This document shows positions 20,987 to 61,080 of a stretch of DNA of 64,000 bases, one piece after another (the stretch's first letter is position 1; each line of letters opens with the position of its first letter). This stretch comes from Candidatus Ratteibacteria bacterium (GTDB lineage: Bacteria > Ratteibacteria > UBA8468 > MWAK01), in NCBI GenBank assembly GCA_041653615.1, contig JBAZEZ010000009.1, forward strand, positions 5,330 to 69,329, given 5' to 3'. Position numbers and translations under genes: made by a program. Under the pieces are notes generated by a model. That model saw only the letters and a list, made by a program, of their open reading frames with translations, had not been told where the DNA came from and made no database searches.

Positions 20987-21059
20987 TTGTCCGCCAAAGC
21001 TTTAGCGAAGGCAGACACCTATCCTACTACACTAGTGCGGGGCTTTAGCCCCGCACTAC
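20987..21059. repeat. CCGCC-family hairpin (20987-21015) plus GTAG REP (21033-21059)
   Basis: ttgtccgccaaagctttagcgaaggcaga; tagtgcggggctttagccccgcactac. Confidence 0.75.
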
Positions 21060-22405: not shown

Positions 22406-22473
22406 CTGGATTCCCGCGCCTACTATCCGCCTTCGCCAAGGCTACGGCGGACACAGTCCGCGGGAATGACAGG
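22406..22473. repeat. ATTCCC/GGGAAT element with a nested CCGCC-family hairpin
   Basis: ctggattcccgcg [tccgccttcgccaaggctacggcggac] cgcgggaatgacagg. Confidence 0.8.
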
Positions 22474-22998: not shown

Positions 22999-23048
22999 GG
23001 CAAATTTATAGTAAAATAATGTTTTATCAATACAAATATAAAGTAAGT

Positions 23049-23127: not shown

Positions 23128-23149
23128 TCGTTAATCTGGAGGAATTACC

Positions 23150-23905: not shown

Positions 23906-24469
23906 ATGTTTCCTTACGTAGTGGTGGGGTTAGGCAACCCCGGCTCCGGCTACCAGAAAAACAGGCATAATTTAGGATTTCGCGTTATAGACGAATTATC
24001 CCGCCAAGACGAAAACTCATCCTTATCCGGCGCGGTATCTTTTCGAAAGAACGGCAAGGCATTTGTGGCGAAGGTAAAAATTGCAGACCGAAACCTGATT
24101 CTCACTAAACCGCACACTTACGTAAACCGCAGCGGCGAAGCGGTCTTAAGCATTCTGACACGCAACCGAATCCCTAAAGAAAATATTCTGATCGTTTGCG
24201 ATGACCTGTCTTTGCCCTTGGGAACTTCGCGGCTGCGCTTTAAAGGCAGTTCCGGCGGACACAACGGTTTGCAATCAATCATTGAGGCAATCGGAAACGA
24301 GTTTGCCCGTCTCCGGCTTGGCATCGGAACACCGGGGTCTTCGGCGGAATGGGCTGATTATGTTTTGAAAGATTTTACGCCGACCGAAGAAGAAAAACTT
24401 CCGGAAATAATAGACCAGGCGGTTGAGGAAATCATAAACTTCATAAAAAGCCAAACGAAAAATAGCTAA
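23906..24469 (+). CDS. pth: Peptidyl-tRNA hydrolase
   Basis: VVGLGNPG, RHNLGF, KPHTYVNRSG, GSSGGHNGL, RLRLGIG. Confidence 0.96.
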   Translation: MFPYVVVGLGNPGSGYQKNRHNLGFRVIDELSRQDENSSLSGAVSFRKNGKAFVAKVKIADRNLILTKPHTYVNRSGEAVLSILTRNRIPKENILIVCDDLSLPLGTSRLRFKGSSGGHNGLQSIIEAIGNEFARLRLGIGTPGSSAEWADYVLKDFTPTEEEKLPEIIDQAVEEIINFIKSQTKNS

Positions 24470-24472
24470 ATA

Positions 24473-24587
24473 GGACGCAGATATACGCAGAAAAAACGGG
24501 ATAATACTAAATGATAATCTTTATTAGAGCGTTTCCTGGCAATTCTTTAAGGTAATTTTTAATCCGTATCTGCGGTAATCTGCGTCC
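24473..24587. repeat. GGACGCAG inverted-arm element, copy 2
   Basis: ggacgcagatatacgcag...atctgcggtaatctgcgtcc. Confidence 0.85.
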
Positions 24588-24594
24588 AAAAAAT

Positions 24595-25755
24595 ATGGAC
24601 TACTTTCAAGAATCGCTCGCCCTGCACCTGAAACACCGGGGAAAGATTGAAGTGTGCAGCAAGGTTGCGCTAAAAGACAAGACTGACTTGTCCCTTGCTT
24701 ACACGCCCGGCGTAGCCGCGCCCTGCAAGGAAATTGAACAGGACCCAAAACGTCTCTACGACTACACCAGCAAGGGAAACATGGTAGCGGTGGTAACCGA
24801 CGGCAGCGCAGTACTGGGCCTGGGCAACATCGGACCGGAAGCCAGCCTGCCGGTAATGGAGGGAAAAGCAATTCTCTTCAAAGAATTCGGCGGGATTGAC
24901 GCCTTTCCCATCGCCATCGCCAGCCAGGATGTAGACGAGATTGTCCGCACCGTCGTCTTAATTTCACCCGTATTTGGCGGCATAAATCTGGAGGATATTT
25001 CCGCCCCCCGATGCTTCCTGATTGAAGAACGACTAAAAAAAGAACTGAAAATTCCGGTCTTTCACGACGACCAGCATGGAACCGCGGTGGTAACATACGC
25101 GGCCCTGTTAAATGGCTTAAAAATAGTAAGGAAAAAGAAGGAAGATATTAAAGTGGTCATCTCCGGGGCAGGCGCCGCCGGTATTGCGATTGCCAAATTC
25201 CTTTTGGCGGCCGGCGTTACCGAAATCATTGTCTGTGACCGCCGCGGAACCATATATGAAGGCAGGAACGGCGAAACCAATACCGCCAAAGAAAAGATAG
25301 CCCTGCTCACCAACCGGAAAAAACTCTCCGGAAGTTTATCTTCCGCGCTGGCCGGCGCGGATGTTTTTGTCGGAGTTTCGGTGCCGGGCCTGATTACCGC
25401 GGAAGACGTGAAGAAAATGGCCGCCCGAGCCATCGTCCTGGCGATGGCCAACCCGATTCCGGAAATTTCACCGGAAGAAGCCAAGGGCGCCGGCGCCGCA
25501 ATCGTGGCAACCGGACGAAGCGACTACTCCAACCAAGTCAACAACCTGTTAGCTTTTCCGGGAATTTTCAAAGGCGCTTTTCAGGCAAAAGCGGTGAGTA
25601 TTACCGAAGAAATGAAAATTGCGGCCAGCTTGGCGATTGCCTCGCTGGTTTCCAACAAAGAACTCTCGCCGAATTATATTATCCCCTCGCCCCTGGACCG
25701 CCGCGTGGCCGATTCTGTCGCGGAATCGGTAAAGACCGCCGCGCTTCAGCGGTAG
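24595..25755 (+). CDS. NAD(P)-dependent malic enzyme (short form, no PTA domain)
   Basis: [62 protein letters not shown]. Confidence 0.93.
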
Positions 25756-28708: not shown

Positions 28709-28794
28709 GTAGGGGCGCGGAGTTGCATCCCCACCCGATAAGACTAAGGCTTTCAGCCCACGTGATACAGGAGGGGACGCAGCCCCTCCCCTAC
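28709..28794. repeat. Inverted GTAG REP doublet upstream of mraY
   Basis: gtaggggcgcggagttgcatcccc ... ggaggggacgcagcccctcccctac. Confidence 0.8.
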
Positions 28795-28798
28795 ATTA

Positions 28799-35544: not shown

Positions 35545-35554
35545 AAAACTCTTT

Positions 35555-35652
35555 GGACGCCGATTACCGCAGATAATCGCGGATACAGATTAAAAATACT
35601 TTATAGAAATATCATTTAGCATTATCCGCAATTTCTGTGAAAATCTGCGTCC
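35555..35652. repeat. GGACGCAG inverted-arm element, copy 3
   Basis: ggacgccgattaccgcagataatcgcggat...aaaatctgcgtcc. Confidence 0.85.
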
Positions 35653-35655
35653 TAT

Positions 35656-36522
35656 TTAAATCTTTTCCGCGGCGCGCAATTTCGCGCTGCGGCTGGCCGG
35701 GTTGACAACCACTTCTTCCCGGCCGGACCGAACCGGCTTTCTGGTAATAACCCGCAGCTGTTCATTTTGCTTCAGGAAGTTTTTAACAATACGGTCTTCC
35801 AGGGAATGGTAGGAAATTATGGCCAGTCGGCCGCCGGGCTTGAGAATTTCCACGGCCTGGGGAAGCGAAATCTCCAAACTTTCCAGTTCCCGATTAACCG
35901 CTATTCTCAGGGCCTGGAAAACACGGGTAGCCGGGTCAGACTTTCCGTGCCGGCGTATCACCCGTCGGCTGATTTCCGCCAGTTGGATCGTGGTATTCGC
36001 AGCGTTACAATTTACCGCTTCTTTTATCCTGACGGCCAACCGTCTGCTCTCCCGGATTTCACCGTATTGGTAAAGAACATCGGCCAGTTCCTCGGCCGAC
36101 AAATCCTTCAGCAACCGCGAGACCGGTTCACCTTCCGCCCGATTGAACCTCATATCCAACGGCCCTTCCCTTTGAAACGAAAAACCTCTTTCGGCCTCAT
36201 TCAGCAAATAGCTGGAAAGACCCAAATCGTAAATTATTCCGTCCGGCGCGTTAAAGCCGGCGCTGCCGGCCAGTAATTTCAAATCCCGAAAATCCCCTTC
36301 CCGAAAAGTGGCTTGACCGGAAAAATCCTTTAACCGGTTGCGGGCTTCTTCCAGCGAACTTACGTCCCGGTCCAGACAGAGTAATTTTACCTCACTTCCA
36401 GAAACCGCCAACATCGCCACGCTGTGCCCGGCAGTACCGGTGGTGGCGTCAATAAAAAAACCACCTTTTTCCGGTTGGAGTATAGTCAGAACTTCCGCAG
36501 TTAAAACAGGTATGTGTAACAT
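35656..36522 (-). CDS. rsmH: 16S rRNA m4C1402 methyltransferase
   Basis: HIPVL, DATTGTAGHS, DLGLSS, GPLDMR, RVFQALRIAVNREL, ISYHSLEDRIVK, SRSAKLR. Confidence 0.96.
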   Translation of the reverse strand: MLHIPVLTAEVLTILQPEKGGFFIDATTGTAGHSVAMLAVSGSEVKLLCLDRDVSSLEEARNRLKDFSGQATFREGDFRDLKLLAGSAGFNAPDGIIYDLGLSSYLLNEAERGFSFQREGPLDMRFNRAEGEPVSRLLKDLSAEELADVLYQYGEIRESRRLAVRIKEAVNCNAANTTIQLAEISRRVIRRHGKSDPATRVFQALRIAVNRELESLEISLPQAVEILKPGGRLAIISYHSLEDRIVKNFLKQNEQLRVITRKPVRSGREEVVVNPASRSAKLRAAEKI

Positions 36523-36611
36523 CAGTGAACGGTGAATGGTTAACGGTGAATGGTAAAAGATTCAAGAATTAAATCAGTTACCGTTTACGATTTACGATTC
36601 ACCGTTTACTG
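36523..36611. repeat. Heptamer-arm inverted element (CAGTGAA...TTACTG), copy 1
   Basis: Arms of GGTGAAT/GGTAAAT-like 7-mers and their complement around the core aaaagattcaagaattaaa. Confidence 0.85.
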
Positions 36612-36616
36612 TTGTT

Positions 36617-37027
36617 GGGGGGCGATAAGCCGGGTTCTGTTTAGATAGCCATTTCTCTTGGCCCTGTCTTACGACAGGGCTCAAGCAGCCTACCCGGGGT
36701 ATTTGCGGAGCGGGCGTCCATCCCCCTGCTCGGCCTTGCTCCAGAGAGGTGTTTGCCAAACGGCAATCTTACGATTGCCGCCGGTGAGCTCTTACCTCAC
36801 CTTTGCACCCTTACTCGTCTACGCAAAACTATGGCGGGCTTTGCCCGCAGTAGCCTTGGCGAAAACGGGCGGTTTATTTTCTGTGGCACTTTCCGTTTCC
36901 TTGCGGAACCTGGGTGTTACCCAGTCCCGGCCCGACCGGAGCCCGGACTTTCCTCAGTTACCGACTTTGTCCGCCGAAGCCAGCTTCGGCATAGGCGGAT
37001 GCAGTAACTGCAGCTATCTCGCCCCCC
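36617..37027 (-). ncRNA. rnpB: RNase P RNA (type A) with expanded P3 and P12
   Basis: Minus strand has GAGGAAAGTCCGGGCT, AGTGCCACAGAAAA and ACAGAACCCGGCTTA; P1 GGGGGGCGA/TCGCCCCCC. Confidence 0.95.
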
Positions 37028-37035
37028 CCTAAATA

Positions 37036-37110
37036 CGGTGAACGGTGAATGGTAAATGGTAAAAGATTCAAGAATTAAAGCGGTTACCATTCACTATTCA
37101 CCATTCACTG
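37036..37110. repeat. Heptamer-arm inverted element, copy 2
   Basis: Shares atggtaaaagattcaagaattaaa with copy 1; contains the rnhA stop codon. Confidence 0.85.
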
Positions 37111-37530
37111 CTTTTTATCCAACGCCTTATTCGCCAGCTGGTCGGCGGTTTTGTTTTCGTCGTGACTTAGTTTTTCAAAAGAGACTTTCCCCAACCCGGA
37201 AACAAGGCGCTGCGCCAAAAGATGAAACCGCTTGATATCTTCGTTCTTGACCTGGTAACGACCGGTCATCTGATTTATCAGAAGTTCGCTATCGCTATAA
37301 ATCGTTAATTCCAATACATCGGTTTTTGTCGGTAAATTATGCGCATATAAAAGTGTTTCTCCCAATCCGTAAAGAAGCGCGGTATATTCAGCGATGTTAT
37401 TGGTGGTAATTCCAATTTCAAGGCCAACCTCTTTCAGCGATTGGCCTTCCGGGTCATAAAGAGCGACTCCAATGGCAGACCGGCCCGGATTACCCCGGCT
37501 TGCTCCATCAATGAAAATGGTTAGTTTCAT
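37105..37530 (-). CDS. rnhA: Ribonuclease HI family protein
   Basis: IFIDGASRGNPG, TNNIAEY, SDSELLINQM, ADQLANKALD. Confidence 0.9.
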   Translation of the reverse strand: MKLTIFIDGASRGNPGRSAIGVALYDPEGQSLKEVGLEIGITTNNIAEYTALLYGLGETLLYAHNLPTKTDVLELTIYSDSELLINQMTGRYQVKNEDIKRFHLLAQRLVSGLGKVSFEKLSHDENKTADQLANKALDKKQ

Positions 37531-38829: not shown

Positions 38830-40713
38830 GTGAACAAAATGAGCGAGTTTGACTTATATCTCTTTTCGGAAGGTACCCTCTACCGGGCCTACGAAAAATT
38901 GGGCAGCCATCCGAAAACTATAAACGAAAAATCCGGTGTCTCGTTTGCCGTCTGGGCTCCCAACGCGAACAGCGTTAGCGTGGTCGGAGACTTCAACCAC
39001 TGGGACGGTCGGAAAAATCAGATGAACCCGGTCGGTTCTTCCGGAATTTGGGAAATATTCGTCCCGGACCTGACGGAAAAAACGCTCTACAAGTACGAAA
39101 TCAAAACCAGAAATAACACACTCCTGCTTAAGACAGACCCCTACGCCTTCTATTCGGAGGTCAGACCGAAAACCGCCTCGATCGTCTGGAATATCAACCG
39201 GTATGTCTGGCAGGACGACGATTGGATGAAAAAACGTAAAGAAAGACAACACCTGGCCGCGCCGTTGAACATTTACGAAATCCACCTGGGTTCCTGGATG
39301 CGCGGGGAAGGGAACACCTTATTGAGTTACCGGGATTTAGCACCCAAACTGGCTGAATACGTGTTGCGGATGGGCTTTTCCCACGTGGAATTTATGCCGT
39401 TCACCGAACACCCCCTGGATGAATCCTGGGGCTACCAGACTACCGGCTACTTTGCGCCGACCAGCCGATTCGGAACACCGGATGATTTCGCTTACCTGGT
39501 TGACCATCTTCACCAAAATGGAATCGGCGTCATCGCCGACTGGGTGCCGGCTCACTTTCCAAAGGACGGACACAGTCTCGCCCGATTTGACGGAACCGCT
39601 TTATACGAACACACAGACCCCAGACAGGCCGAACATAAGGACTGGGGAACACTCATATTCAACTACGGTCGTTACGAAGTTGCCAACTTCCTGATTAACA
39701 GCGCCTTATTCTGGCTGGATAAATACCACATCGACGGCCTGCGGGTGGACGCGGTCGCTTCCATGCTTTACCTGGATTACTCCAAAAAACCCGGCGAATG
39801 GATTCCCAACCGTTTCGGCGGTAATGAAAACCTGGAAGCGGTTGCCTTTTTGAAAAGACTCAACCAGGTCGTTTACGGCTATCACCCGGATGTTTTCACC
39901 GCGGCCGAAGAATCCACTTCCTGGCCGATGGTTTCCCGACCCACCTACGCCGGCGGTCTGGGTTTCGGATATAAATGGAATATGGGCTGGATGCATGATT
40001 CACTCCACTACATTTCCCGAGATGCCGTCTACCGAAAATTCCACCAACAGAACCTGACCTTTGCCCTCCTTTACGCGTTCAGTGAAAATTTTATCCTGCC
40101 GCTTTCACACGACGAGGTCGTACATGGTAAGGCTTCGCTTCTGGCCAGGATGCCGGGTGATGATTGGCAGAAATTTGCCACCCTGCGTCTCCTGTTGGGT
40201 TATATGTACACTCATCCGGGTAAAAAATTGCTCTTTATGGGCGCGGAAATAGGTCAGTGGCGGGAATGGGATTTTCTCTCAAGCATAGACTGGCATCTCC
40301 TGCAGTATGAACCGCACCGGAAACTGCAGCGGTTTGTCCGGGACTTAAACCTGTTTTACCGGAACCAGCCGCCGCTCTACCAGTTGGATTCAAGCCCGGC
40401 CGGATTTGAATGGATTGATTTCAACGATACGGAAGGAAGTATCGTCTCCTACCAGCGTTACGGACAGGACAAAAATGATTCACTAGTAGTAATCTGCAAC
40501 TTTACGCCGGTACCCCGTTTTAATTACTGCGTCGGCGTCCGCCAACCCGGTTTTTACCGGGAACTCCTCAACAGCGATTCCGAATACTACGGCGGAGGCA
40601 ATCTGGGCAACAGCGGCGGCCTGGAAACTCAAAAAATTCCCTGTCACAACAGGCCTTTCTCCCTTTCCCTAACCATTCCACCCCTGGCTGCCCTCATTCT
40701 GAAACATATTTAG
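38830..40713 (+). CDS. glgB: 1,4-alpha-glucan branching enzyme
   Basis: [68 protein letters not shown]. Confidence 0.97.
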
Positions 40714-41640
40714 AATCCGGCAACCGCCGCCGCAATTGCTGAATTTCTTGCAGTCAGGACAATTTTTCTTAAGGTTATTTGCCTGAAAATATTTTACCTT
40801 TTCCAGTTCTGTCAACTTTAAAAAGCTATCTTCAAAAAGACTTCCCAGGATTTCGGGATTCTGCTCGCAGGTTCTCAAGTTGCCGGATGAATCAATAACC
40901 CATTTATTCCGGCCGCAGACGCAGGTACCGAAATTAAGGTTCGGATATTGCTCCTGGTCAATGAGGCAGGACTCAACCGGAACCGTAACGTTTATCGGAA
41001 AATTATATTCCCGGGCTTTTCGGTCCGAGGCAAACAAGGCCTTTCCCAATTCCTCTTCGGTCAGCGTTAATCCGGGAAGGTTATTCAGGCCTTCCCCTCC
41101 CGGCACAAACCGGTTTAGGGAAACGCTGTCCGCCGAAAAAGCAAAACAGAGGTCAATGACATCCGCCACTTCTAATAAGTTCTGCTTTGTAATTACGACG
41201 GAAACATTCAATTTTGCCCGGTATTTTTTTACCAGTAAAATTGCATTTCTTACTTTCTGCAACTGGTCGTTTCGACTTAAATAAGAATACGCCTCTTGTT
41301 TTATGCTCGGAAGCGAAATTTCAAAATAACCGACACCGTTACTAACTAAAGCCGAAACCTTCTCTTCATCCAAAAGGATACCGTTGGTGGCGATTCCCAG
41401 TTTGATTTTCCTCTGGTTGAAAAAAGACGCGATTTCTACAATATCCCGATGCAGCAACGGCTCCCCGCCCGCGAAGGTTACTGAATCCGGTGAAACTTCC
41501 TTGAGAACCCTATCAAATAATTCCCTGATTTCTGAAAGTGTGAGTTCTTTCCGGGGATAACCGCTCTTTTCTTTCCAGACATTATAACAGTAACGGCAGT
41601 TATTGTTGCAGCGGGAAGTTACCTCGTAAATAAAAAACAT
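40669..41640 (-). CDS. Radical SAM protein with SPASM domain
   Basis: [20 protein letters not shown]; SPASM cysteines CVCG...CE...CPDC...CGGGC. Confidence 0.92.
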
Positions 41641-42611
41641 TACCGGCTTGCCCCAAAGTAAATTCGCCAGATTGCCGACTCCAAATCCGCAATCAATTCA
41701 TTCATTCCGGAAAAGGACTCCTTAAAATCCGCGAACGCTTTCTTGGTTGCCAGGTATTCTTTCTCGGGTAGTTCCGGATAGCCTATTTCTTTTTGACTGG
41801 CTTGGTAATCAGCAAAATCTTTGTTAAAAACCGACGCAAGTTTATCTACTTCCTGCGCCGTTGAAGGCCTTGGAAATGGTATACGATAGGAACCGGGTTG
41901 ACCGGAAAACACATCCAAAATGCAAAATGCCTTTATATCCTGTTGGATGTTGGAAAGGGCTTGGCGATATTCCGACGCATTAATAACCTTTGCCTTCTTC
42001 AAAACCAGAAGCCGGTCAATCTTCAATTCCAAGTCAGCGAGAAAATCCGGTTTCGCCATAATTACCGAATCTGTCGGAATAGCCATCCGCGTCAGCGCAA
42101 GATAAAACGTACCCCGGCCAATGTAATCAATTCTGGCATTACAAATTTTTTTCAGAAGGCCGGTTTCCGCCGCGGCTATCTTTTCTCCGGTAATTTTGTT
42201 TAAACCGGAGAATACTTCATCCGATTCTTTTCGCAGGCTACTACATTCGTCCGGGGAAATTGAACCGCTGTACACTCCGTATTTATCCGGCTCCGGTTTT
42301 TTCGTTTCTATTTGGTCTAACTTCTTCCAAAACGCTTTGAGATTTCTCCATTCCGGGGTACTGTTCAAGGCGGCTATTCTCTGCGCTGAAACGAGGCGCG
42401 TATCTTTTGATTGTCCGGAAACCGTTGGTTTATCCTCCTGAGCGTAACTTATTCTGCCAAAAGAAAGAAAAACGAGGAAGAGGAAAAAAGTACTCAGGAA
42501 GAGGTTTCGGCGATTAATCCGGTTCAGTTTCGCCGGACGAATGCCCAGAAAAAAGACGAGATAGGCGACCAGCACCGCAAATACAACTACAACTGCTTGA
42601 ATGGGTTTCAT
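41640..42611 (-). CDS. Hypothetical exported/membrane helical protein coupled to the radical SAM gene
   Basis: Hydrophobic N-terminus, RRNLF, second hydrophobic stretch, SYA|QE; its TAA overlaps the radical SAM ATG; SD aaaggag. Confidence 0.7.
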   Translation of the reverse strand: MKPIQAVVVVFAVLVAYLVFFLGIRPAKLNRINRRNLFLSTFFLFLVFLSFGRISYAQEDKPTVSGQSKDTRLVSAQRIAALNSTPEWRNLKAFWKKLDQIETKKPEPDKYGVYSGSISPDECSSLRKESDEVFSGLNKITGEKIAAAETGLLKKICNARIDYIGRGTFYLALTRMAIPTDSVIMAKPDFLADLELKIDRLLVLKKAKVINASEYRQALSNIQQDIKAFCILDVFSGQPGSYRIPFPRPSTAQEVDKLASVFNKDFADYQASQKEIGYPELPEKEYLATKKAFADFKESFSGMNELIADLESAIWRIYFGASR

Positions 42612-42613
42612 AA

Positions 42614-42697
42614 ACTCTCCTTTGCCCGCCGTAACATGGACGCCAAGTGACGACGAAACCGTCTGGTAACGAGACGCCCGCTTTGCGAAGGCGGACT
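42614..42697 (-). promoter_or_regulatory. Structured leader motif containing the SD, copy A
   Basis: Homologous to 49534-49618; the closing stem pairs only on the minus strand (G-U). Confidence 0.55.
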
Positions 42698-42816
42698 TTT
42701 TGGGGATTTGCGCTTTTTAAATTTAGACACCGAAATCACCAAAAAGTTCCTTGACGCGCTATTTTTCATAATTTTACCCCTATCTGTTACCAAATGTCTA
42801 TTGGTTTTAGATATAC

Positions 42817-44272: not shown

Positions 44273-44334
44273 GTTGGATAAATTTTTAAGCGCTTAGAAA
44301 AAGGCTGAACGGAAAAGTTATTTGTATTTTTTCA

Positions 44335-44525
44335 AACGAGGGTGTTTGGTTAAGTAAAATTTCACGTAGTGTCAGGAACAAAACAAGCAGAACGGAGAGG
44401 TGAGTATCCGGGGCTCACCCGAACCACGGGTGAGAACACGGAGAGGCTCGCCTCGGAGTTACGTAGTTTTGTCTGACACGCAGGGTGTTTTACAAACCAA
44501 ACATCCGAGTTATTCAGTGGCACGG
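44335..44525. repeat. Structured ~190-bp repeat, copy 1 (3' of the MFS gene)
   Basis: Colinear with 45750-45990; closing stem gtgtcag..acaaaac/gttttgtctgacac. Confidence 0.8.
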
Positions 44526-45703: not shown

Positions 45704-45749
45704 TGAAATCAGCGATCCTAAAATAGTCGCGCTACATTTTTTGACTTGC

Positions 45750-45990
45750 AACGAGGGTGTCCGGTGAACGGCATTTCGCAGAGTTGTTTGTTTTTACCCC
45801 AAATGAGGATTGTTTCTTTTGCAACACTTCGCGGAGTGACAGTTACAAAACAAGCAATACGGAGGCTTGAGTAGCCGGGGCTCGCCTTGTAATATAGGCA
45901 AGAACACGGAGAGGCTCAAGCCGGAGTTGCGTAGTTTTGTCTGACACGTAACGTGTGGAGCAAAAGAAAAATCCGAGTTACTCAATGGAG
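45750..45990. repeat. Structured repeat, copy 2 (3' of galT, 5' of MFS)
   Basis: Shares aacgagggtgt, acaaaacaagca, ccggggctc, agaacacggagaggctc, cgtagttttgtctgacacg and atccgagtta with copy 1. Confidence 0.8.
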
Positions 45991-46997: not shown

Positions 46998-47016
46998 AAT
47001 AGTCTCCTTCGGAAAC

Positions 47017-47073
47017 GGGAGGGGACGTAGCCCCTCCCCTACATTAACAACGCCGAGCAAGCTCGGCAACTAC
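47017..47073 (-). repeat. Two tandem GTAG REPs (47017-47042, 47052-47073)
   Basis: Reverse complements gtaggggaggggctacgtcccctccc and gtagttgccgagcttgctcggc. Confidence 0.8.
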
Positions 47074-48510: not shown

Positions 48511-49177
48511 ATTTCTTCCATAAATCAGGACGTAATTTCTTCGTTCTTTCTTCAGCCGTCTTCTGCCTCCAAGCAGCAATTTTTTTATGGTCTCCGGAAA
48601 GCAGAACTTCCGGTACCCCAACTCCCCGCCACCGGGCCGGCCTGGTATAATGCGGCCAATCCAAAAGATTACCGCTGAACGAGTCCTGCTCGGCCGCGCC
48701 TTCCGGCAGAACTCCCGGTAAAAGACGCGTCACCGCGTCAATCACCACCAGGGCTGCCGTTTCTCCGGCGGAAAGAACGTAATCACCAATTGAAAGTTGC
48801 CGATCACACAACTCTACAACTCGCTCATCCATTCCTTCGTAATGACCGCAAATCAGAATAAGCCCTTTCTTTCGGGAAAATTTTCTCGCTAAAGGCTGGT
48901 CTAAAACCCTCCCGGCCGGTGAAAGCATAATTATTTCTGCTTTCGGATTATCTTTTCGTATTTTTCCAAGCGCTTTCGCAACCGGACCGACCATCATCAC
49001 CATTCCCACGCCGCCGCCGAATGATTTATCATCAACTTTCCGGTGACGGTCAGTCGTAAAATCGCGCAGGTTATGAACCCGAAGGTCCAGAAATCCCGCT
49101 TCCCGGGCCCGACCGATAATGCTTAAATCAAGAGGTAAAAACGCCTCCGGGAATATGGTAATAACGTCTATGCGCAT
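48455..49177 (-). CDS. trmD: tRNA (guanine-N1)-methyltransferase
   Basis: VDDKSFGGGVGM, LICGHYEG, SIGDYVLSAGE, PHYTRP, VPEVLLSGDH. Confidence 0.96.
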   Translation of the reverse strand: MRIDVITIFPEAFLPLDLSIIGRAREAGFLDLRVHNLRDFTTDRHRKVDDKSFGGGVGMVMMVGPVAKALGKIRKDNPKAEIIMLSPAGRVLDQPLARKFSRKKGLILICGHYEGMDERVVELCDRQLSIGDYVLSAGETAALVVIDAVTRLLPGVLPEGAAEQDSFSGNLLDWPHYTRPARWRGVGVPEVLLSGDHKKIAAWRQKTAEERTKKLRPDLWKKYDHQKTGRTLPEKKGFGG

Positions 49178-49188
49178 GTAACTTAAGC

Positions 49189-49267
49189 TGTCATTCCTGC
49201 AGATTTTTAGCAGGAATCTACGCTTTTAAAAATACTGGATTCCCGCTTGATACACGCGGGAATGACA
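49189..49267. repeat. ATTCCC/GGGAAT doublet (REPIN-like)
   Basis: tgtcattcctgc...gcaggaatc spacer ggattcccgc...gcgggaatgaca. Confidence 0.82.
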
Positions 49268-49285
49268 TAAGGAATTAATACATTT

Positions 49286-49528
49286 TTACAGTATGCCCTT
49301 TTGCTTAAAAAGGCTTCGGACCGTATCCGACGGTTGGGCGCCGACTCCTAACCAATATTTTGCCCGCTCCGCGTTCACTTCCAGAACTTTCGGCTGCAAC
49401 CGGTTATTGTAATTTCCCAACAACTCCAGATAGTCGCCTCTGCCATCTTTACGGCTGTCAACCACCACGATACGATAACTGGGCTGATTTCTCTTGCCGA
49501 CTCTCCTTAATCTGATTTTTGCTGCCAT
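49286..49528 (-). CDS. rpsP: 30S ribosomal protein S16
   Basis: KIRLRRVGKRNQPSYRIVVVDSR...LGNYN...WLGVGAQPSDTV. Confidence 0.97.
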   Translation of the reverse strand: MAAKIRLRRVGKRNQPSYRIVVVDSRKDGRGDYLELLGNYNNRLQPKVLEVNAERAKYWLGVGAQPSDTVRSLFKQKGIL

Positions 49529-49533: not shown

Positions 49534-49618
49534 TTCTCCTTTACCTGCCATAGCATGGACGCCTTGTAGCGCCTAAGGCGCCTGTTCACGAGGCGTCCGC
49601 CCTGCGAAAGCAGGCCCG
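49534..49618 (-). promoter_or_regulatory. Structured leader motif containing the SD, copy B
   Basis: Homologous to 42614-42697; ggacgcc/ggcgtcc stem with an internal gcgcc-taa-ggcgc hairpin. Confidence 0.55.
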
Positions 49619-49630
49619 CCGCCTCCTATC

Positions 49631-50896
49631 TTAATTCTCGTTTATTCGCGTTATTCTCGCACCGACTGCGTTCAGTTTCCCTTCCATGTCCTGATACCCC
49701 CGGTCCAGGTGATAGATTCTGCCCACAACCGTTTCCCCGTCCGCAGCCAACCCGGCCAACACAAGCGCGGCGCTGGCGCGCAAGTCGGAGGCCATTACCC
49801 TGGTTCCGGCCAACCGCTCCCTGCCCCGAATAATGGCTGTTCCCTCTTGCAGCGTAATATCGGCTCCCAAGCGCTTCAACTCCGCGGCGTGCATAAATCT
49901 TTCCGGGAAAATCTTCTCCGTAATCACGCCGGTTCCTTCCGCCAAACACATCAAAGACATAAATTGCGCCTGCAGATCAGTCGGAAATCCGGGATAGGGA
50001 AGAGTCACGATATCAACACCTTTAAGTTTCCCTTTAGCTTTGATTGAAACCTTGTTTTTCCCTTTTTTGATTTCCACTCCGGCCTCAACCAATTTTTCCA
50101 GAAGCGCAAAAAGATGCTCCGGCACGCAGTCGCGAACCTCAACTTCGCCGGCGGTAATCGCGCCGGCCAGAAGATGGGTTCCGGCTTCAATCCGGTCGGG
50201 AATGACGCGATAATCGGTTGGTTTCAATTTTTTAACCCCTTTTATCCGAATCAGGTGACTTCCGGCCCCGTAAATTTTGGCGCCCATCTTATTCAAAAAA
50301 TTAGCAAGGTCAACTATTTCCGGCTCACAGGCGGCAAATTCAATAACCGTTTCCCCGCTCGCGAAACAAGCGGCCATCAATAAATTGGCCGTTGCCAAAA
50401 CGCTGGAACCGAAATTACCGCCCAGAAAAATTTCCGTTCCGGCCAACCGCTTGGTCTCTCCCTCAACATAACCTTCAACCAGTTTAAAACCCACACCCAA
50501 CTTCTCTAAACCCTTAAGATGAATATCCACCGGTCGGTCGCCGATAACGCACCCGCCCGGCAGAGAAATACGCGCCTTTCCAAAACAAGCCAAAAGCGGA
50601 CCCAGCAGGCAGATGGAAGCACGCATCTCTTTAACCAATTCGTAGGGCGCGGTACAACTGACAATCCCCGAAGAATCCACGGTAATGCAGTCACCTTCCC
50701 ACTGCACTCGCGCTCCGACCGCGGAAAGAATTTTAAGCATCGTCCGGATGTCCCTCAAGTGCGGAACTCCGTATATTCTGCTCCTGCCCCCAGAAAGCAA
50801 GGTCGCGGCCAGAATGGGAAGGCTGGCATTCTTGGAACCACTCGTTGAAATACTACCCTTAAGCCTTCGCCCGCCAAGAATTTTAAGCGCTTCCAT
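49631..50896 (-). CDS. murA: UDP-N-acetylglucosamine 1-carboxyvinyltransferase
   Basis: GSKNASLP, MRASICLLGP, LPGGCVIGDRPVDIH, IPDRIEAGT, YPGFPTDLQ, SDLRASAAL; start at ATG 50896. Confidence 0.97.
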   Translation of the reverse strand: MEALKILGGRRLKGSISTSGSKNASLPILAATLLSGGRSRIYGVPHLRDIRTMLKILSAVGARVQWEGDCITVDSSGIVSCTAPYELVKEMRASICLLGPLLACFGKARISLPGGCVIGDRPVDIHLKGLEKLGVGFKLVEGYVEGETKRLAGTEIFLGGNFGSSVLATANLLMAACFASGETVIEFAACEPEIVDLANFLNKMGAKIYGAGSHLIRIKGVKKLKPTDYRVIPDRIEAGTHLLAGAITAGEVEVRDCVPEHLFALLEKLVEAGVEIKKGKNKVSIKAKGKLKGVDIVTLPYPGFPTDLQAQFMSLMCLAEGTGVITEKIFPERFMHAAELKRLGADITLQEGTAIIRGRERLAGTRVMASDLRASAALVLAGLAADGETVVGRIYHLDRGYQDMEGKLNAVGARITRINEN

Positions 50897-52012: not shown

Positions 52013-52021
52013 CTTAACCTC

Positions 52022-52095
52022 CGTGGATGGTCAACGGTAAATAGTAAATGGTAAAATCTTTAAACCATTCACGATTCACAATTCACCATTTACTG
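52022..52095. repeat. Heptamer-arm inverted element, copy 3
   Basis: Core aaaatctttaaacc; ends tttactg. Confidence 0.8.
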
Positions 52096-52446
52096 CTTTA
52101 TGTCCGAATTGTCCATGGCCATTTTACCGAGCACCGGTAAAAGAAAATATTCGCCCCGATATGCCTTGACCATTAGGACAATCCAAAAAACGACTCCCGC
52201 TAAATTAATCAAGTAACGAAAGATTTTCAACAGCGGCGGTGCAAAAGAAAAAACGGCGGTAATCACCGATAACAAAACAAGCCAGACGACTGAAAAAAAT
52301 ATCGCCTGCAGGCTGTGAAAACGAATAAACTTATTCTTCTTTTCTGTCAGGAAAAAGAAGAGGCCGGTAATTACGCTGAAAATACCCAGCACATAACAAA
52401 GCAATCCGGCCATATTTTCCTTCAATCCGCTGCTTGTCTCTTCCAT
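52090..52446 (-). CDS. DUF4870-like membrane protein
   Basis: SSGLKENMAGLLCY, FIRFHSLQAI, MVKAYRGE..LPVLG. Confidence 0.8.
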   Translation of the reverse strand: MEETSSGLKENMAGLLCYVLGIFSVITGLFFFLTEKKNKFIRFHSLQAIFFSVVWLVLLSVITAVFSFAPPLLKIFRYLINLAGVVFWIVLMVKAYRGEYFLLPVLGKMAMDNSDIKQ

Positions 52447-52455
52447 GCTTACCTC

Positions 52456-52515
52456 CGTGAATGGTGAATGGTGAATGGTTTAAAGATTTCACTATTCATC
52501 GTTTACTGTTCACTG
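52456..52515. repeat. Heptamer-arm inverted element, copy 4
   Basis: gtgaatggtgaatggtgaatgg; core ggtttaaagatttc is the near reverse complement of the copy 3 core. Confidence 0.8.
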
Positions 52516-54152: not shown

Positions 54153-54162
54153 ATTAATTTTT

Positions 54163-54279
54163 GGACGCAGATTACCGCTGATTACCGCAGATAAAGTATA
54201 ATAAAAATTTCTTATAGAAATACTTTTAAAAAATTATCGTTTAGTATATTATCCGCAGTTTCTGCGAAAATCTGCGTCC
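54163..54279. repeat. GGACGCAG inverted-arm element, copy 4
   Basis: ggacgcagattaccgctgattaccgcagat...aaaatctgcgtcc. Confidence 0.87.
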
Positions 54280-54285
54280 TCTTGC

Positions 54286-56058
54286 TCATAGCGCTGCGGA
54301 AAGTTCATTAAACTCATCCCAAATTTCTCCGGGCATCCGGTCTCCGAATTTCTTCAAAAAGATTTCTACGTCGGCAAGTTCTGCTTTCCATTCCCCGGGA
54401 TTTACGGCCAACGCCTTTTCCAAATTCGCCTCGGAAATGTCCAGGCCGGAGAGGTCCAGACCGTTCCGGCCGGGCAGAATTCCGGCCGGCGTCTCCCGAA
54501 AATTCGTGGAACCGGAATCGAGGGAACGCTCAATAATCCATTTCAAAACCCGGATATTATCGCCGAAACCGGGCCAGAGAAATTTTCCGTCTTCATCTTT
54601 GCGGAACCAGTTGATACAAAATATTTCCGGCGGACTGGTCATTCGTTTCCCCATATCCAACCAGTGTTGAAAATAATCACCCATATTATAGCCGCAAAAA
54701 GGCAGCATTGCCATCGGGTCCCGGCGCAAAACCCCAACCTTAAGAGCCGCGGCGGCCGTAGTCTCCGAACCCATCGCAGCCGCCATAAATACGCCGTGCT
54801 GCCAGTTAAAACCTTGCATGACCAGCGGTCTGGTATCGCTCCTGCGCCCGCCGAAAATTATGGCAGAAATCGGAACTCCTTGCGGATTATCGGCTTCCGG
54901 TGAAAGCGTGGGACACTGCCTGATATCGACCGTAAACCGGGAATTGGGATGGGCCGCCGGCGTTTTGGATTCCGGTTGCCAGGGATTCCCCTGCCAATCC
55001 AATAAATTTTCCGGCCGGGCGCCATCCATCCCCTCCCACCACGGTTCGTTGGTTTCGGTGTTCAAGGCAGTATTCGTATAAAGGGTAGGATAAGAAGTAC
55101 CCGCTTTCAGGGTCCTCATCATGTTAGGATTGGTCGCCAGAGAAGTCCCGGGCGCTACTCCAAAAAACCCGGTTTCCGGGTTAAGCGCGTAAAGCCGGCC
55201 ATCCTTTCCGATATGCAGCCAGGCAATGTCGTCACCCAGGGTCCATATTTTGTATTCGGGCAAGGCTGATTCCATCATTGCCCGGTTGGTCTTCCCGCAG
55301 GCGGAAGGAAGCGCCGCAACCAGGTAAGTAACGTTTCCTTTCGGGTCTTCCACGCCGATAATAACCATGTGCTCAGCCAACCAGCCTTCCTTTAAACCCA
55401 ACCAGGAAGCAATCCTTAAAGAAAAACATTTTTTACCCAGAAGCGCGTTTCCGCCGTAACCGGAACCGATACTCCAGACCAGGTTCTCTTCGGGGAAATG
55501 CATGATAAAACGGCGGCTGGGGTCAAAATCACCTACCGAATGAATGCCCTTTACGAAATCTTCCGAGGCGCCTATCTTATTCACAGCCTCTTTTCCCAGA
55601 CGGGTCATTATCCGCATGCTAACCGCAACGTAAGAAATGTCTGTAATCTGGACGCAGGCCTTGGCATACGGGGAAAGGGGATTACCCATCACGTAGGGAA
55701 GCACGTACATCGTCCGTCCGGTCATGCATCCTTCGGAGAGCGCGCGCATTTTCGCTTTGGCTTCCGCCGGGTCCATCCAGTTGTTGTTGGGTCCGACCGT
55801 CTCTCGGTCCGGGTGACATACAAACGTCAGTTGTTCGGTCCGGGCAACATCGGTCGGGTGGCTTCGGTGCAGGTATGAAAAAGGAAATGTTTCCTGATTA
55901 AGTTTATAAAACACGTTCTGACTGCCGATACGCTCTTCTTTTTCACCGATTTCAACCAGGCGGCGCGCTTCTTCCTCGGAACCGTCGCACCAATATACCC
56001 GGGCCGGCTTGGTCAGCCGCGCCTGTTCCTCAACCCATTTTTCTAAAGGTGTCGCCAT
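54286..56058 (-). CDS. pckG: GTP-dependent phosphoenolpyruvate carboxykinase
   Basis: DVARTE, SGYGGNALLGKKCF, WLAEHM, PSACGKTN, GDDIAW, NPETGFFGVAPG, HPNSRF, FGGRR, DPMAMLPFCGY. Confidence 0.96.
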   Translation of the reverse strand: MATPLEKWVEEQARLTKPARVYWCDGSEEEARRLVEIGEKEERIGSQNVFYKLNQETFPFSYLHRSHPTDVARTEQLTFVCHPDRETVGPNNNWMDPAEAKAKMRALSEGCMTGRTMYVLPYVMGNPLSPYAKACVQITDISYVAVSMRIMTRLGKEAVNKIGASEDFVKGIHSVGDFDPSRRFIMHFPEENLVWSIGSGYGGNALLGKKCFSLRIASWLGLKEGWLAEHMVIIGVEDPKGNVTYLVAALPSACGKTNRAMMESALPEYKIWTLGDDIAWLHIGKDGRLYALNPETGFFGVAPGTSLATNPNMMRTLKAGTSYPTLYTNTALNTETNEPWWEGMDGARPENLLDWQGNPWQPESKTPAAHPNSRFTVDIRQCPTLSPEADNPQGVPISAIIFGGRRSDTRPLVMQGFNWQHGVFMAAAMGSETTAAAALKVGVLRRDPMAMLPFCGYNMGDYFQHWLDMGKRMTSPPEIFCINWFRKDEDGKFLWPGFGDNIRVLKWIIERSLDSGSTNFRETPAGILPGRNGLDLSGLDISEANLEKALAVNPGEWKAELADVEIFLKKFGDRMPGEIWDEFNELSAAL

Positions 56059-56063
56059 AAATT

Positions 56064-56096
56064 CAGTGAATAGTAAACGGTGAATAGTGAATGGTA
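56064..56096. repeat. Heptamer-arm element, single arm
   Basis: cagtgaatagtaaacggtgaatagtgaatggta. Confidence 0.65.
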
Positions 56097-56186
56097 ATCG
56101 ACTACTAAAAACTTAACTTTATATTTTACTACAACGGCGGGAATTCGGCAAACGCAGAAAATGGGGTCACCTGACTAACGAAAATA

Positions 56187-58362: not shown

Positions 58363-58373
58363 CAAAATAATTT

Positions 58374-58484
58374 GGACGCAGATAAACGCAGAAACGACAG
58401 GATAAAGATTAAAATAATTTTAAATTACTTTTAAGAATTTTTTCGTTATGTTTTATCTGCGGTTATCTGCGAAAATCAGCGTCC
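58374..58484. repeat. GGACGCAG inverted-arm element, copy 5
   Basis: ggacgcagataaacgcag...atctgcgaaaatcagcgtcc. Confidence 0.85.
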
Positions 58485-59209
58485 TAAAAACTTGCGTTCA
58501 GCCGCGCCAAGTCCTCCGGCGTATCCACGCACTGGCTGTCAAAAGGGGTGATGACCACCCGGATTTTGGCGCCGTTTTCCTGCGCGCGCAATTGTTCCAG
58601 TTGCTCAATCTCTTCCAGAACACCGGTTGGCCAGGAAGCGAATTTCAGCAAAAAATCCCGCCGGAATCCGTAAATACCCAGGTGCTTGTAAGCGGCGGTC
58701 TTCGGCAATCTCCCCTGATTATCGCGCTCATAGGGAATTGAGGCCCGGGTGAAATAAAGCGCGTCGCCGAACCGGTCCACCACTACCTTGACCGCGTTGG
58801 TATCAACCCATTCCGTTTCACTTAACACCGGCGTCGCCGCAGTCGTCATCAAAACACCCGGCGTTTGAAAAGGTTCTGCCACTTCGATGATAACTTCCGG
58901 CGCGATAAACGGCTCGTCCGCCTGGATATTGATAAATATATCGGCTTCAATTTCGCGGGCCAGATAAGCCGCCCGATCGGAACCGGAGGAAAACTTTCCA
59001 ACCACCATGCGCGCCGAACCGCCGAAAGCCCGCACCGCCTTTAATACCCTCTCGTCGTCGGTGGCCACGATAATTTCGTCCAAAACTTTTGCCTTTTGCG
59101 CCTGGCGGTAAACGTGCTCAATCAAAGGCTTGCCTTTCAAAACCGCCAGCACTTTCCCGGGAAAACGGCTGGACTGGTAACGCGCCGGAATAACTCCGAT
59201 TATTTTCAT
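58484..59209 (-). CDS. kdsB: 3-deoxy-manno-octulosonate cytidylyltransferase
   Basis: IPARYQSSRFPGKVL, SGSDR, NIQADEP, NAVKVV, ALYFTRASIP, KHLGIYGFR, LEQLRAQENG. Confidence 0.94.
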   Translation of the reverse strand: MKIIGVIPARYQSSRFPGKVLAVLKGKPLIEHVYRQAQKAKVLDEIIVATDDERVLKAVRAFGGSARMVVGKFSSGSDRAAYLAREIEADIFINIQADEPFIAPEVIIEVAEPFQTPGVLMTTAATPVLSETEWVDTNAVKVVVDRFGDALYFTRASIPYERDNQGRLPKTAAYKHLGIYGFRRDFLLKFASWPTGVLEEIEQLEQLRAQENGAKIRVVITPFDSQCVDTPEDLARLNASF

Positions 59210-59736
59210 ATTTTTATTATTTCAATTATCTCCCGCGCTACAACCCGCGGAGTTTTACCGTCTGTATCCACGCAGATGTCCGCCTTCCGGTAAAGAGGCA
59301 GGCGCTGCGATAAAAGGTTTTTAATTGTTTTTTCTTTCGGGAGGGGACAGAGCCCCTCCCCTACATTTTTAGGGGCATTCAAAAGCGGACGACCGTTATC
59401 CCCGGCAACCCGTTTTTTAATTTCGCCCGGAGAAACCATCAGAAAAATAACAATACCGTTCTTTTTAAGGTTCTTCCGGTTCGCGGAATCAACGATTGAC
59501 CCGCCTCCGGCGGCGATTACCACGCCTTCTTTCCGGGAAACATCCGCAACCACTTTCTTTTCCAAAGAACGAAAAAACGGTTCGCCCTGACGCCGGAAGA
59601 TTTCCTTAATCGATTGACCGGACTTCCCTTCGATAATAGAGTCGGTATCAATGAATTCGAGATTTAGTTTCCGGGCCAGAATCTTTCCGGTTGAACTCTT
59701 GCCGGCCCCCATGAATCCGGTCAGGACAATTTTCAT
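59206..59736 (-). CDS. aroK: Shikimate kinase with an in-frame REP insertion
   Basis: LTGFMGAGKS, GEPFFRSLE, AAGGG, RPLL, RLPLY. Confidence 0.93.
   Translation of the reverse strand: MKIVLTGFMGAGKSSTGKILARKLNLEFIDTDSIIEGKSGQSIKEIFRRQGEPFFRSLEKKVVADVSRKEGVVIAAGGGSIVDSANRKNLKKNGIVIFLMVSPGEIKKRVAGDNGRPLLNAPKNVGEGLCPLPKEKTIKNLLSQRLPLYRKADICVDTDGKTPRVVAREIIEIIKI
59339..59364 (-). repeat. GTAG REP in frame within aroK
   Basis: gtaggggaggggctctgtcccctccc encodes VGEGLCPLP. Confidence 0.87.
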
Positions 59737-59765
59737 AAATTCAAAATATAGGAATTTCCTTCTTG

Positions 59766-59848
59766 GGACGCAGATACACGCGGAAACAACAGGATAATAA
59801 TTTCAGAGTATTTCTTTAATCTGTGGTTATCTGCGAAAATCAGCGTCC
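59766..59848. repeat. GGACGCAG inverted-arm element, copy 6 (overlaps the aroC 3' end)
   Basis: ggacgcagatacacgcgg...atctgcgaaaatcagcgtcc. Confidence 0.85.
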
Positions 59849-60990
59849 AAATGCTTCAGGTCTTTATTTTTTTTAATCTCCTCAATACTGTCGCCGCCAA
59901 ACTTTTCCAGGAAAGCGTCGGCCAGCACAAAAGCGGTCATTGCTTCCCCTACAATTCCGGCGGCCGGTACCGCGCAAACATCGGAACGTTCTTTAATGGC
60001 CGTAGCCGGTTTCCGGCTTATTATATCCACGGTTGTCAGCGGCTGACCCAGAGTGGAAATCGGTTTCATCGCCGCCCGGATAACCAGCGGCTGGCCGTTA
60101 GTGACACCGGCCTCCAGACCGCCGGCGCGGTTTGTTTTCCGATAAAAACCTTTTTTTGATTCGTGAAAAATTTCATCATGCGCCTTAGAACCAAAAAGAG
60201 ACGCCAGCCGAAAGCCTTCGCCGACTTCAACACCTTTTACGCCCGGTATGCTCATCAGCGCCTGCGCCAGAAGCCCGTCCAACCGGATATCCCACTGCGT
60301 ATAGGTACCCAATCCAACCGGCAGTCCGGTGGCTTTCACTTCAAAAATCCCGCCCAGCGTATCTCCATTCTCTCTCGCCTGGTTGATTAAATCAACCATC
60401 TTCGCTTCCGCGACAGAAGAAAGACAGCGCAAACGGGAATTTTCAATAACGTCGCAGCCTTCCGGCGGATGAAACTCGGAATGGTCGCAGACCGTACCGA
60501 TTTGAACTACCCGGCTGTAAATACTTATTCCGAAAACAAAAAGCAGCTTTTTTACGATCGCGGCCGCGGCTACCCGGGCAGCGGTCTCCCGGGCGCTGGC
60601 ACGTTCTATCACGTTGCGGATATCCTGAAAACCAAATTTAAGCGCCCCGGAAAGGTCGGCGTGTCCGGGCCGGGGAGTGGTAACCGGCTTGGTTTCCAAA
60701 CCACCCGGTTCCACCGCCATCACCTCCTTCCAATTCTCCCAGTCCCGATTGCGGACCAGAAGACCGACCGGCGTACCGAGAGTAAAACCCCTCCTTAAAC
60801 CGGAAAGAATTTCCACCTCATCCTTCTCAATCGCCATCCGGCCGCCCCGGCCAAAACCCTGTTGCCGCCGGAACAGGTCCAGGTCAATCTCCTCCTTCGT
60901 AAGGGGAAGCCCGGCCGGAATCCCTTCCAGAATAACCGTTAGCGCCGGACCGTGACTTTCTCCAGCAGTCAAAAATCTGATTTTTTTCAT
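59827..60990 (-). CDS. aroC: Chorismate synthase
   Basis: TAGESHG, RRQQGFGRGGRM, PRPGHAD, ERASARET, AGGLEAG, MKPISTL, RSDVCAVPAA. Confidence 0.97.
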   Translation of the reverse strand: MKKIRFLTAGESHGPALTVILEGIPAGLPLTKEEIDLDLFRRQQGFGRGGRMAIEKDEVEILSGLRRGFTLGTPVGLLVRNRDWENWKEVMAVEPGGLETKPVTTPRPGHADLSGALKFGFQDIRNVIERASARETAARVAAAAIVKKLLFVFGISIYSRVVQIGTVCDHSEFHPPEGCDVIENSRLRCLSSVAEAKMVDLINQARENGDTLGGIFEVKATGLPVGLGTYTQWDIRLDGLLAQALMSIPGVKGVEVGEGFRLASLFGSKAHDEIFHESKKGFYRKTNRAGGLEAGVTNGQPLVIRAAMKPISTLGQPLTTVDIISRKPATAIKERSDVCAVPAAGIVGEAMTAFVLADAFLEKFGGDSIEEIKKNKDLKHLDADFRR

Positions 60991-61009: not shown

Positions 61010-61080
61010 GCGACCCTGAAAGGGGCGCACTACATTTAACTACAAACATCTATGTTTTGTAGTTACCCAGCTTGCTGGGC
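61010..61080. repeat. Two GTAG REPs (61010-61033 minus, 61059-61080 plus)
   Basis: gcgaccctgaaaggggcgcactac; gtagttacccagcttgctgggc. Confidence 0.78.

Follow-up and report, generated by a model that had tools for sequence, protein, structure and literature searches.

Why does nearly the same structured sequence stand directly in front of the start codons of two unrelated genes, one of them rpsP? The two stretches, 42614-42697 and 49534-49618, lie in the window (the whole stretch of 64,000 nucleotides that was analysed, from a Candidatus Ratteibacteria genome), and the original prediction left two answers: a cis-regulatory RNA shared with rpsP, or a mobile element that delivers a ribosome-binding site. 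Our analysis makes it fairly probable that both belong to a small family of dispersed palindromic repeats, recently gained as units 5' of unrelated start codons and tied to the Shine-Dalgarno sequence (SD). The hosts of the family, on the best reading, are uncultivated bacteria of one narrow lineage that is allied to Candidatus Omnitrophota/Ratteibacteria.

Two copies of one structured unit in the window

Both stretches read as had been described. Copy A (42617-42696) and copy B (49536-49615), both on the minus strand, align without a gap and are identical at 58 of 80 positions (72%), and their flanks do not align on either side. A degenerate 20-mer taken from the shared 3' half matches the window twice, at A and at B, where shuffled sequences give an expectation of 0.08. 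Two covariance models were used, one built from the A+B pair (R1) and a further one (R2); R1 scores the two copies at 103 and 102.5 bits and its next match in the window at 18.6. The features of the two loci are as follows.

42624..42696 (-): copy A hairpin, 73 nt; minimum-free-energy fold of the same architecture as the other copies, R1 102.5 bits, R2 87.5 bits
42690-42696 with 42624-42630 (-): copy A, P1
42684-42686 with 42634-42636 (-): copy A, P2
42673-42679 with 42638-42644 (-): copy A, P3
42658-42663 with 42649-42654 (-): copy A, apical P4
42617..42623 (-): copy A SD, AAAGGAG, directly 3' of the hairpin, then a 5-nt spacer AGUUU and the ATG at 42609-42611
41640-42611 (-): gene after copy A, a 323-aa hypothetical membrane or secreted protein
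40669-41640: radical SAM/SPASM gene, next after the hypothetical gene
42771..42800 (-): sigma-70-like promoter match TAGACA-18-TAAAAT, a consensus match only, about 70 nt upstream of copy A and outside the repeat unit
49543..49615 (-): copy B hairpin, 73 nt, placed by folds, covariance-model scores and pair counts
49609-49615 with 49543-49549 (-): copy B, P1
49603-49605 with 49553-49555 (-): copy B, P2
49592-49598 with 49557-49563 (-): copy B, P3
49577-49582 with 49568-49573 (-): copy B, P4
49536..49542 (-): copy B SD, AAAGGAG, directly 3' of the hairpin, then a 7-nt spacer and the rpsP ATG at 49526-49528
49286-49528 (-): rpsP
49622..49627 (-): second SD-like AGGAGG, which closely follows the stop codon of murA (49631-49633) and precedes copy B by 6 nt

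The stem originally described, GGGCGUC or GGACGCC with GGCGUCC and arms that start 35 nt apart, corresponds to helix P3, and the two G-U pairs expected there in copy A are both present. The structure was described correctly as far as it went, but two outer helices, P1 (7 bp) and P2 (3 bp), had been overlooked. AAAGGAG likewise stands before the ATG in both copies as predicted; the spacer is 5 nt long in A, 7 nt in B.

Pairing on the mRNA strand

On the minus strand, A and B share one minimum-free-energy fold with four helices and 73 nt. It rises from a base of P1 (7 bp) through a 3x3 internal loop, UUC opposite UAY, to P2 (3 bp, GCA/UGY), and above P2 through a 4x1 internal loop to P3 (7-8 bp) and the closing apical P4 (6 bp); the 3' end of the hairpin stands 3 nt before the GGAG of AAAGGAG. 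Full-length copies form an irregular helix of about 25 bp, which is about two helical turns stacked with internal loops between, and the flanks are A-rich and single-stranded. The internal-loop features UUC/UAY and A60 are conserved, and the z-scores of the folds are modest (-1.5 and -1.8).

When six distinct sequences were aligned over the 25 pairs of this structure, 96% of the 124 pair cells held a standard pair, and sliding the register lowered the value to 31-47%. Compensatory changes on both sides occur in five pairs, three of these in the apical stem, so that the inner hairpin, which had been said to differ in sequence and yet persist, does persist, in register. Column shuffles equalled the observed pairing or compensation in only 3-4 of 500 trials, a figure to be read with the fact that the structure was derived from the same six sequences and that three of them were picked via a 3'-arm pattern; P1-P3 alone gave no significant signal, the observed value being reached in 167 of 500 shuffles. 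Covariation, which the original prediction had proposed as a test, is thus found only in a weak form, as five compensatory pairs among six sequences that also supplied the structure.

The prediction of strand-specific G-U compensation was borne out in one respect and not in another. The folding energy of copy A is -31.3 kcal/mol for the minus strand versus -21.3 kcal/mol for the plus strand, in agreement with the preference expected for it, but copy B folds equally well on either strand and no preference in folding energy was seen for copy C, L007 or L006, which are further copies introduced below. What extends to the whole family is a tendency in the pairs themselves: 13 cells hold G-U, which pairs on the mRNA strand only, versus 2 that hold A·C, which pairs on the other strand only (simple binomial p ~0.004, with cells that are not independent). 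This excess favours the mRNA strand, and it is a better strand measure than folding energy. Within a sample of six sequences it suggests that what counts is the hairpin in the RNA or in single-stranded DNA of the sense strand. Taken together, the compensatory changes and the sense-strand G-U bias suggest selection at the RNA level, and therefore the hairpin may do more than spread selfishly.

Copies elsewhere in the genome and in other genomes

Two metagenome runs contain the genome of the window, one from landfill (about 11x) and one from groundwater (about 19x), and their contigs were placed on the element at a likeness of at least 80%. In these two independent metagenomes the core shared by the copies is covered about six times as deeply as single-copy flanks (59 versus 10 and 117 versus 19), and six depth-matched contigs carry the element, giving copies A, B, C, E, F and G. 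The element is therefore a dispersed repeat with two copies in the window and six in the genome at non-homologous loci, all before unrelated genes: the 323-aa hypothetical gene, rpsP, a ferredoxin/oxidoreductase operon, a DUF2582 gene and two others. Copy C is 100% identical to a copy retrieved separately (L013). The 3' flank of copy E reads GGAGGGAGAG and then ATG AAA AAG, that of copy F AAAGGAGAAAAC and then ATG AGC AAA, and that of copy G, which is also the copy reconstructed from run X2, AAAGGAGGCGC and then ATG ATT ACC AAG, where the gene is the DUF2582 homologue.

A scan for the exact pattern GGCGTCCATGYTAYGGCRGG gave 6 matches in genome_contigs (596 Gb), 9 in metagenome_contigs (JGI) and 0 in viral_contigs. 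By our own estimate about 9 chance matches are expected per large collection, and the covariance model confirms only L006, L007, L011 and L013; most of the matches are due to chance. L007, from a Candidatus Omnitrophota MAG, is 78 nt long and stands before a gene for a secreted VWA protein beside an ECF sigma/anti-sigma pair. L006 and L011 are the same sequence, a 55-nt form without the apical part, before a gene for a DUF2582 winged-helix protein, and L013 (81 nt) precedes the ferredoxin gene that heads a 2-oxoacid:ferredoxin oxidoreductase operon. The MAG of L007 also has, on a different contig, a mini form of 34 nt (P1, loop and P2, then AAAGGAGG) that stands before a 107-aa ORF. Two further uncultivated Omnitrophota-allied genomes, then, carry versions of about 80, 55 and 34 nt. 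When the SD was included in the pattern, the viral collection gave 19 matches with one plausible mini form, at 8403-8447 of a contig classed as viral (L072, IMGVR_UViG_3300037264_007134), which reads ACCCGCC GAC GCCAAGGC UAU GGCGGGU, then AAAGGAGG, then the ATG of an ORF; a BLAST search of annotated phage and plasmid records gave no match to the element. The copy number is low (six), and few further genomes were found by these exact-pattern scans.

Empty sites in relatives

The S16 proteins closest to that of the window share 95%, 80% (from a Candidatus Ratteibacteria genome), 78% and 74% identity with it, and the contigs of these four relatives keep the gene order murA-rpsP-trmD-gatA-galT. 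The murA-rpsP spacer measures 102 nt in the window versus, in the same order of identity, 24 nt in L054 (the relative with 95% identity), 62 in L029, 11 in L039 and 57 in L019, and neither covariance model finds the element in any of these four spacers. Between L054 and the window the coding flanks align near-perfectly and the spacer is a different short sequence, with no clean alignment of the flanks at the empty site. Parsimony from the outgroups, which favours gain over loss, leads us to infer that copy B was gained after the split from L054. As a conserved leader, the cis-regulatory RNA that the original prediction shared out to rpsP is unsupported because four syntenic relatives do without it; a regulatory role of the repeat itself is possible.

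A second locus gives the same picture. The DUF2582 proteins of L051 and L006 are 93% identical; upstream of the gene in L051 a REP-like hairpin (GTAGTGCGACCC..GGGTCGC) runs straight into GAAGGAGG without the element, and at the same point in L006 GTTAG and a 48-nt hairpin are inserted. Six further DUF2582 loci (L045, L047, L048, L050, L052 and L053) also lack the element. A conserved DUF2582 leader was accordingly rejected, the element being present in the genome of the window and in L006 and absent from seven other DUF2582 loci. Close relatives thus differ by presence and absence of the element at the same locus in two cases, rpsP (window versus L054) and DUF2582 (L006 versus L051).

Geometry at gene starts

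The 3' flank is known for ten copies, and in every one of them the motif (A/G)AAGGAG follows with its GGAG 3 nt after P1, and an ATG comes 5-9 nt further on, in the orientation of the gene. The original prediction had asked whether further matches would always lie 5' of start codons or would turn out randomly oriented and unlinked to them, and the ten copies answer in its favour without exception. Gene starts of this genome do not usually look like this: a rough gene call in the window finds AAGGAG upstream of about 6 of 61 starts and AAAGGAG upstream of 2 of 61. Similarity between copies is limited to the stretch from the 5' end of P1 to just past GGAG.

This unit includes no shared promoter, as promoter-like sites vary between copies or are absent. 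Sigma-70-like matches lie upstream of copies A and C; none precedes copy B, which is intercistronic (murA-rpsP). About 45 nt upstream of the element in L007, at 6170-6205, lies GGAAC-N17-GTCTAA, which, going by the ECF promoter consensus, we take to be an ECF-like sigma promoter; the site is between the ECF sigma/anti-sigma gene pair and the VWA gene.

The SD may be carried by the element or may be the site at which it arrives. The spacing is invariant and the SD uniform, and a second AGGAGG stands upstream of copy B, which, from comparison with the empty L054 site, may be the displaced ancestral SD of rpsP; these observations speak for an SD that is carried. For a targeted SD speak the empty L051 site, which already has GAAGGAGG at the same place, and rpsP contigs of other species from the same samples, in which a similarity of about 85% reaches as far as the SD and ends exactly where the hairpin borders on it; both comparisons are compatible with a native rather than a carried SD. 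In three of six copies the left flank ends in AAAG, four bases that are also found right after P1, and the other three do not fit; AAAG might be the remnant of a target duplication, though an inconsistent one across copies. The idea of a mobile element that delivers a ribosome-binding site accordingly fits the data as to the element, with its six copies, unrelated genes, empty sites and (A/G)AAGGAG plus ATG, and has to be widened as to the delivery, since the SD is either carried or abutted.

Tests against known families

With Rfam 15 at the gathering threshold the whole window yields RNase P and a tRNA only, and around A and B a search with E up to 10 returned only chance matches of at most 20 bits. 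Sequestration of the SD, as in a riboswitch or thermometer, was not found in any fold, the SD being outside the helix every time, and the predicted unpaired probability of the stretch from SD to ATG is similar with the element present, deleted or shuffled; therefore neither sequestration nor insulation is supported. An insulator, in which the hairpin would keep the SD open, was rejected on the same unpaired probabilities, which show no consistent effect. Also rejected were an upstream ORF from an internal AUG (MLRRAKE-like peptides), for which frame and stop differ per copy and no SD precedes, and an intrinsic terminator, as the sense-strand hairpin is followed by AAAGGAG and a T-run occurs only at copy A, on the opposite strand. 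An integron attC site was rejected too, the GTTRRRY core being absent and the genes not being cassettes.

Neither terminal inverted repeats beyond the hairpin itself nor a target-site duplication was found in the flanks of the six copies, and no transposase or parent insertion sequence in about 64 kb of the genome and a few contigs of relatives. A MITE was rejected, given that the flanks of the six copies share no consistent direct repeat and that the hairpin is the only inverted repeat. The tetranucleotide expected of REPs varies, with GCUAC in copy C, L006 and the mini forms, GUUAC in A, and GCUAU in B and L007. As in REP2 repeats, all ten copies lie directly upstream of ORFs and contain or abut a ribosome-binding site; a promoter or ATG common to the copies, as REP2 has, was not found within the limits of similarity given above.

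Other small repeats in the window

Some mini hairpins built on the base of the element lack an SD and are found facing either way; two of them lie within RNase P RNA. Two in the window outside RNase P are listed here, together with the copies of a MITE-like family:

22425..22452 (+): mini relative of the element base, CCGCC UUC GCCAAGGC UAC GGCGG; R2 25.3 bits, E 0.004
20989..21016 (-): similar mini hairpin between coaD and rpmF, antisense to both; R2 21.3 bits, E 0.035
8896-9009, 24465-24603, 35547-35656, 54155-54285, 58366-58490, 59758-59854, 62566-62691: MITE-like copies

No SD adjoins the mini hairpin at 22425-22452, which sits just upstream of def inside the loop of a ATTCCCGC..GCGGGAATGACA hairpin (22400-22480); with TCCGC on both borders, it looks like one repeat inserted into another. 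The RNase P RNA (36613-37027, minus strand, 255 bits) has extra hairpins in its P3 and P12 regions (36843-36870 and 36962-37000) that resemble the mini form of the element, with CCGCC..GGCGG and UUC/UAC-type loops. Repeats of an ACGGTGA/ATGGTGA heptamer flank the RNase P RNA gene (36517-36607 and 37030-37113) and recur at 52015-52098, 52449-52488 and 56058-56097.

The MITE-like family has seven copies of 110-140 bp; their terminal inverted repeats are clear, GGACGCAGAT..CGCAGA on one side and TCTGCGAAAATCTGCGTCC on the other, and the centre is AT-rich. Two REP-like families are each followed by CTAC: GGGAGGGG..CCCCTCCCCTACA at 4720-4754, 9759-9793, 28764-28798, 47012-47046 and 59334-59368, and GCGACCCTGAAAGGGTCGCGCTAC at 17564-17587, 45712-45735 and 61010-61033, the latter also just upstream of the DUF2582 SD in L006 and L051. 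A 102-nt double hairpin, TGTCATTCCTG..CAGGAATCTAC plus ATTCCCGC..GCGGGAATGACA, occurs at 23027-23128 and 49167-49268 with 75% identity. The copy at 49167-49268 fills the spacer between rpsP and trmD; in three relatives this spacer measures 0-52 nt. A direct repeat of about 190 nt (44333-44520 and 45800-45988, 74-81% identity) flanks an MFS transporter gene between galT and glgB; relatives lack this region and have galT next to glgB. This crowding with MITE-like, REP-like and nested hairpin families counts for reading the element as a repeat.

Discussion

If the two stretches are young members of a dispersed repeat family, as we think probable, the unit that is gained would have three parts: a conserved hairpin base (the 7-bp P1, the UUC/UAY internal loop and the 3-bp P2), an optional variable top (P3 and the apical stem) whose presence or reduction would give the 34-, 55- and about 80-nt versions, and a strong SD, (A/G)AAGGAG, 3 nt after P1. 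Copies would have been gained recently and as whole units directly upstream of the start codons of unrelated genes, presumably by some form of transposition or recombination, and either the SD would travel with the hairpin or an AAGGAG already in place would be the precise target of the hairpin. After insertion, the element would be transcribed within the 5' UTR or intercistronic RNA and fold on the mRNA strand, and the downstream gene would then be translated from the SD at the 3' edge of the repeat. Any effect of the hairpin on the mRNA, be it on stability, processing or factor binding, would probably be secondary and modest.

[quoted passage not shown] In function the element seems to resemble these two most. 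Like them it is dispersed between genes in moderate copy number, has internal stem-loops and no terminal inverted repeats, lies directly upstream of unrelated ORFs, contributes a ribosome-binding site and joins the 5' UTR; unlike REP2 it is 34-81 nt long with one long hairpin, has no inter-copy promoter or ATG and shows no sequence similarity. With Correia elements and other bacterial MITEs it shares small size, non-autonomy, co-transcription and presence or absence between strains, and, just as Correia or MITE RNA hairpins can alter expression, it forms a predicted RNA hairpin; unlike Correia elements it is without defined terminal inverted repeats, a TA target duplication, promoters or an IHF site. 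Ribosomal-protein leaders and riboswitches are likewise structured 5' UTR RNAs beside an SD. The element departs from them in lacking conservation at orthologous loci, in standing before unrelated genes and in not sequestering the SD, and it has no Rfam match and can dispense with its upper half.

The alternative that survives best, possible though unlikely in our judgement, is a post-transcriptional regulon element whose base and 3' strand bind a trans-acting protein, a small RNA or a small ligand, and whose members were recruited by duplication of the module, a route that has been proposed for Neisseria REP2. It would account for the fixed hairpin geometry beside the SD, for compensatory and wobble changes that keep the pairing (13 G-U versus 2 A·C), for the conserved internal loops (UUC/UAY and A60) and for the occurrence of the module behind different promoter types, and REP2 offers a precedent for co-regulation. 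It has to contend with downstream genes that have no common theme, with the absence of the element from orthologous loci of close relatives, with an upper half that is wholly dispensable in the 55-nt and 34-nt forms, with a predicted SD accessibility that the element leaves unaffected, with the lack of an Rfam family match and with covariation drawn from six sequences only.

The element could also be a REP-type element at the DNA level, moved by a RAYT or an IS200/IS605-like single-strand transposase, so that the link to the SD would be a choice of target (CTCCTTT on the opposite strand). REP/BIME sequences are, like the element, GC-rich imperfect palindromes between genes, in multiple copies, without target-site duplication and with a CTAC-like tetranucleotide beside the palindrome, and the genome of the window has classical-looking REPs as well. 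The REP-like hairpins with a CTAC tail, the GCUAC after the inner palindrome of the element, which is the tail of the GCGACCC..GGGTCGCGCTAC family, the absence of a target-site duplication, as in that transposon family, and the hairpins nested within other hairpins all agree with this origin. The element nevertheless differs from REP/BIME in being fixed in orientation and position at start codons, in including or abutting the SD, and in being longer and in few copies, with a tetranucleotide that varies (UUAC in A, CUAU in B); REPs normally occur in both orientations and mostly 3' of genes, and it is the complement of the GTAG strand that the G-U bias favours. We therefore regard such an origin as rather doubtful.

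A further proposal is that the hairpin acts as a module for processing or stabilising mRNA; cleavage by RNase III, or a block to 5' exonucleases or RNase E, would then uncouple the downstream cistron. Phage T7 intercistronic sites and Correia elements uncouple a downstream cistron from upstream RNA in this way. The intercistronic position of copy B, full-length copies of about two helical turns with internal loops, and A-rich, single-stranded flanks would suit such a module, while the 34-nt mini form has only about 12 bp; since processing would moreover be a consequence of the repeat and not an alternative origin for it, we hold this explanation to be improbable. A vertically inherited autoregulatory rpsP leader (ribosomal-protein leader or riboswitch), for which one could cite that the element is structured and in front of rpsP, is refuted by the empty orthologous sites, that is by four syntenic relatives with S16 74-95% identical and spacers of 11-62 nt without the element, and with the same element before unrelated genes and no Rfam match we consider it extremely improbable.

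A bolder version of the repeat reading, which we put forward only as a speculation that is more likely wrong than right by a wide measure, is that insertion of the hairpin is aimed at translation-initiation regions, either because it carries a strong SD or because it recognises and restores AAGGAG, and that the base of the hairpin is a site for a trans-acting factor, so that the whole would be a mobile module that recruits genes into a regulon. If this were true, carriage of the SD would re-wire the translation of any gene before which the element lands.

Returning to the repeat family that we favour, a structured SD-adjacent sequence found in two leaders is easily mistaken for a riboswitch or a ribosomal-protein leader, and here it is the comparison with close relatives that reveals a young repeat. 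This is a warning for motif discovery on metagenome-assembled genomes, in which copies from the same genome can mimic conservation. The source is a barely studied candidate phylum whose genomes appear to be crowded with small hairpin repeats, and if the element truly carries or targets the SD, then a repeat that brings translation signals with it, or keeps them intact, when it inserts would be seen here in compact natural form.
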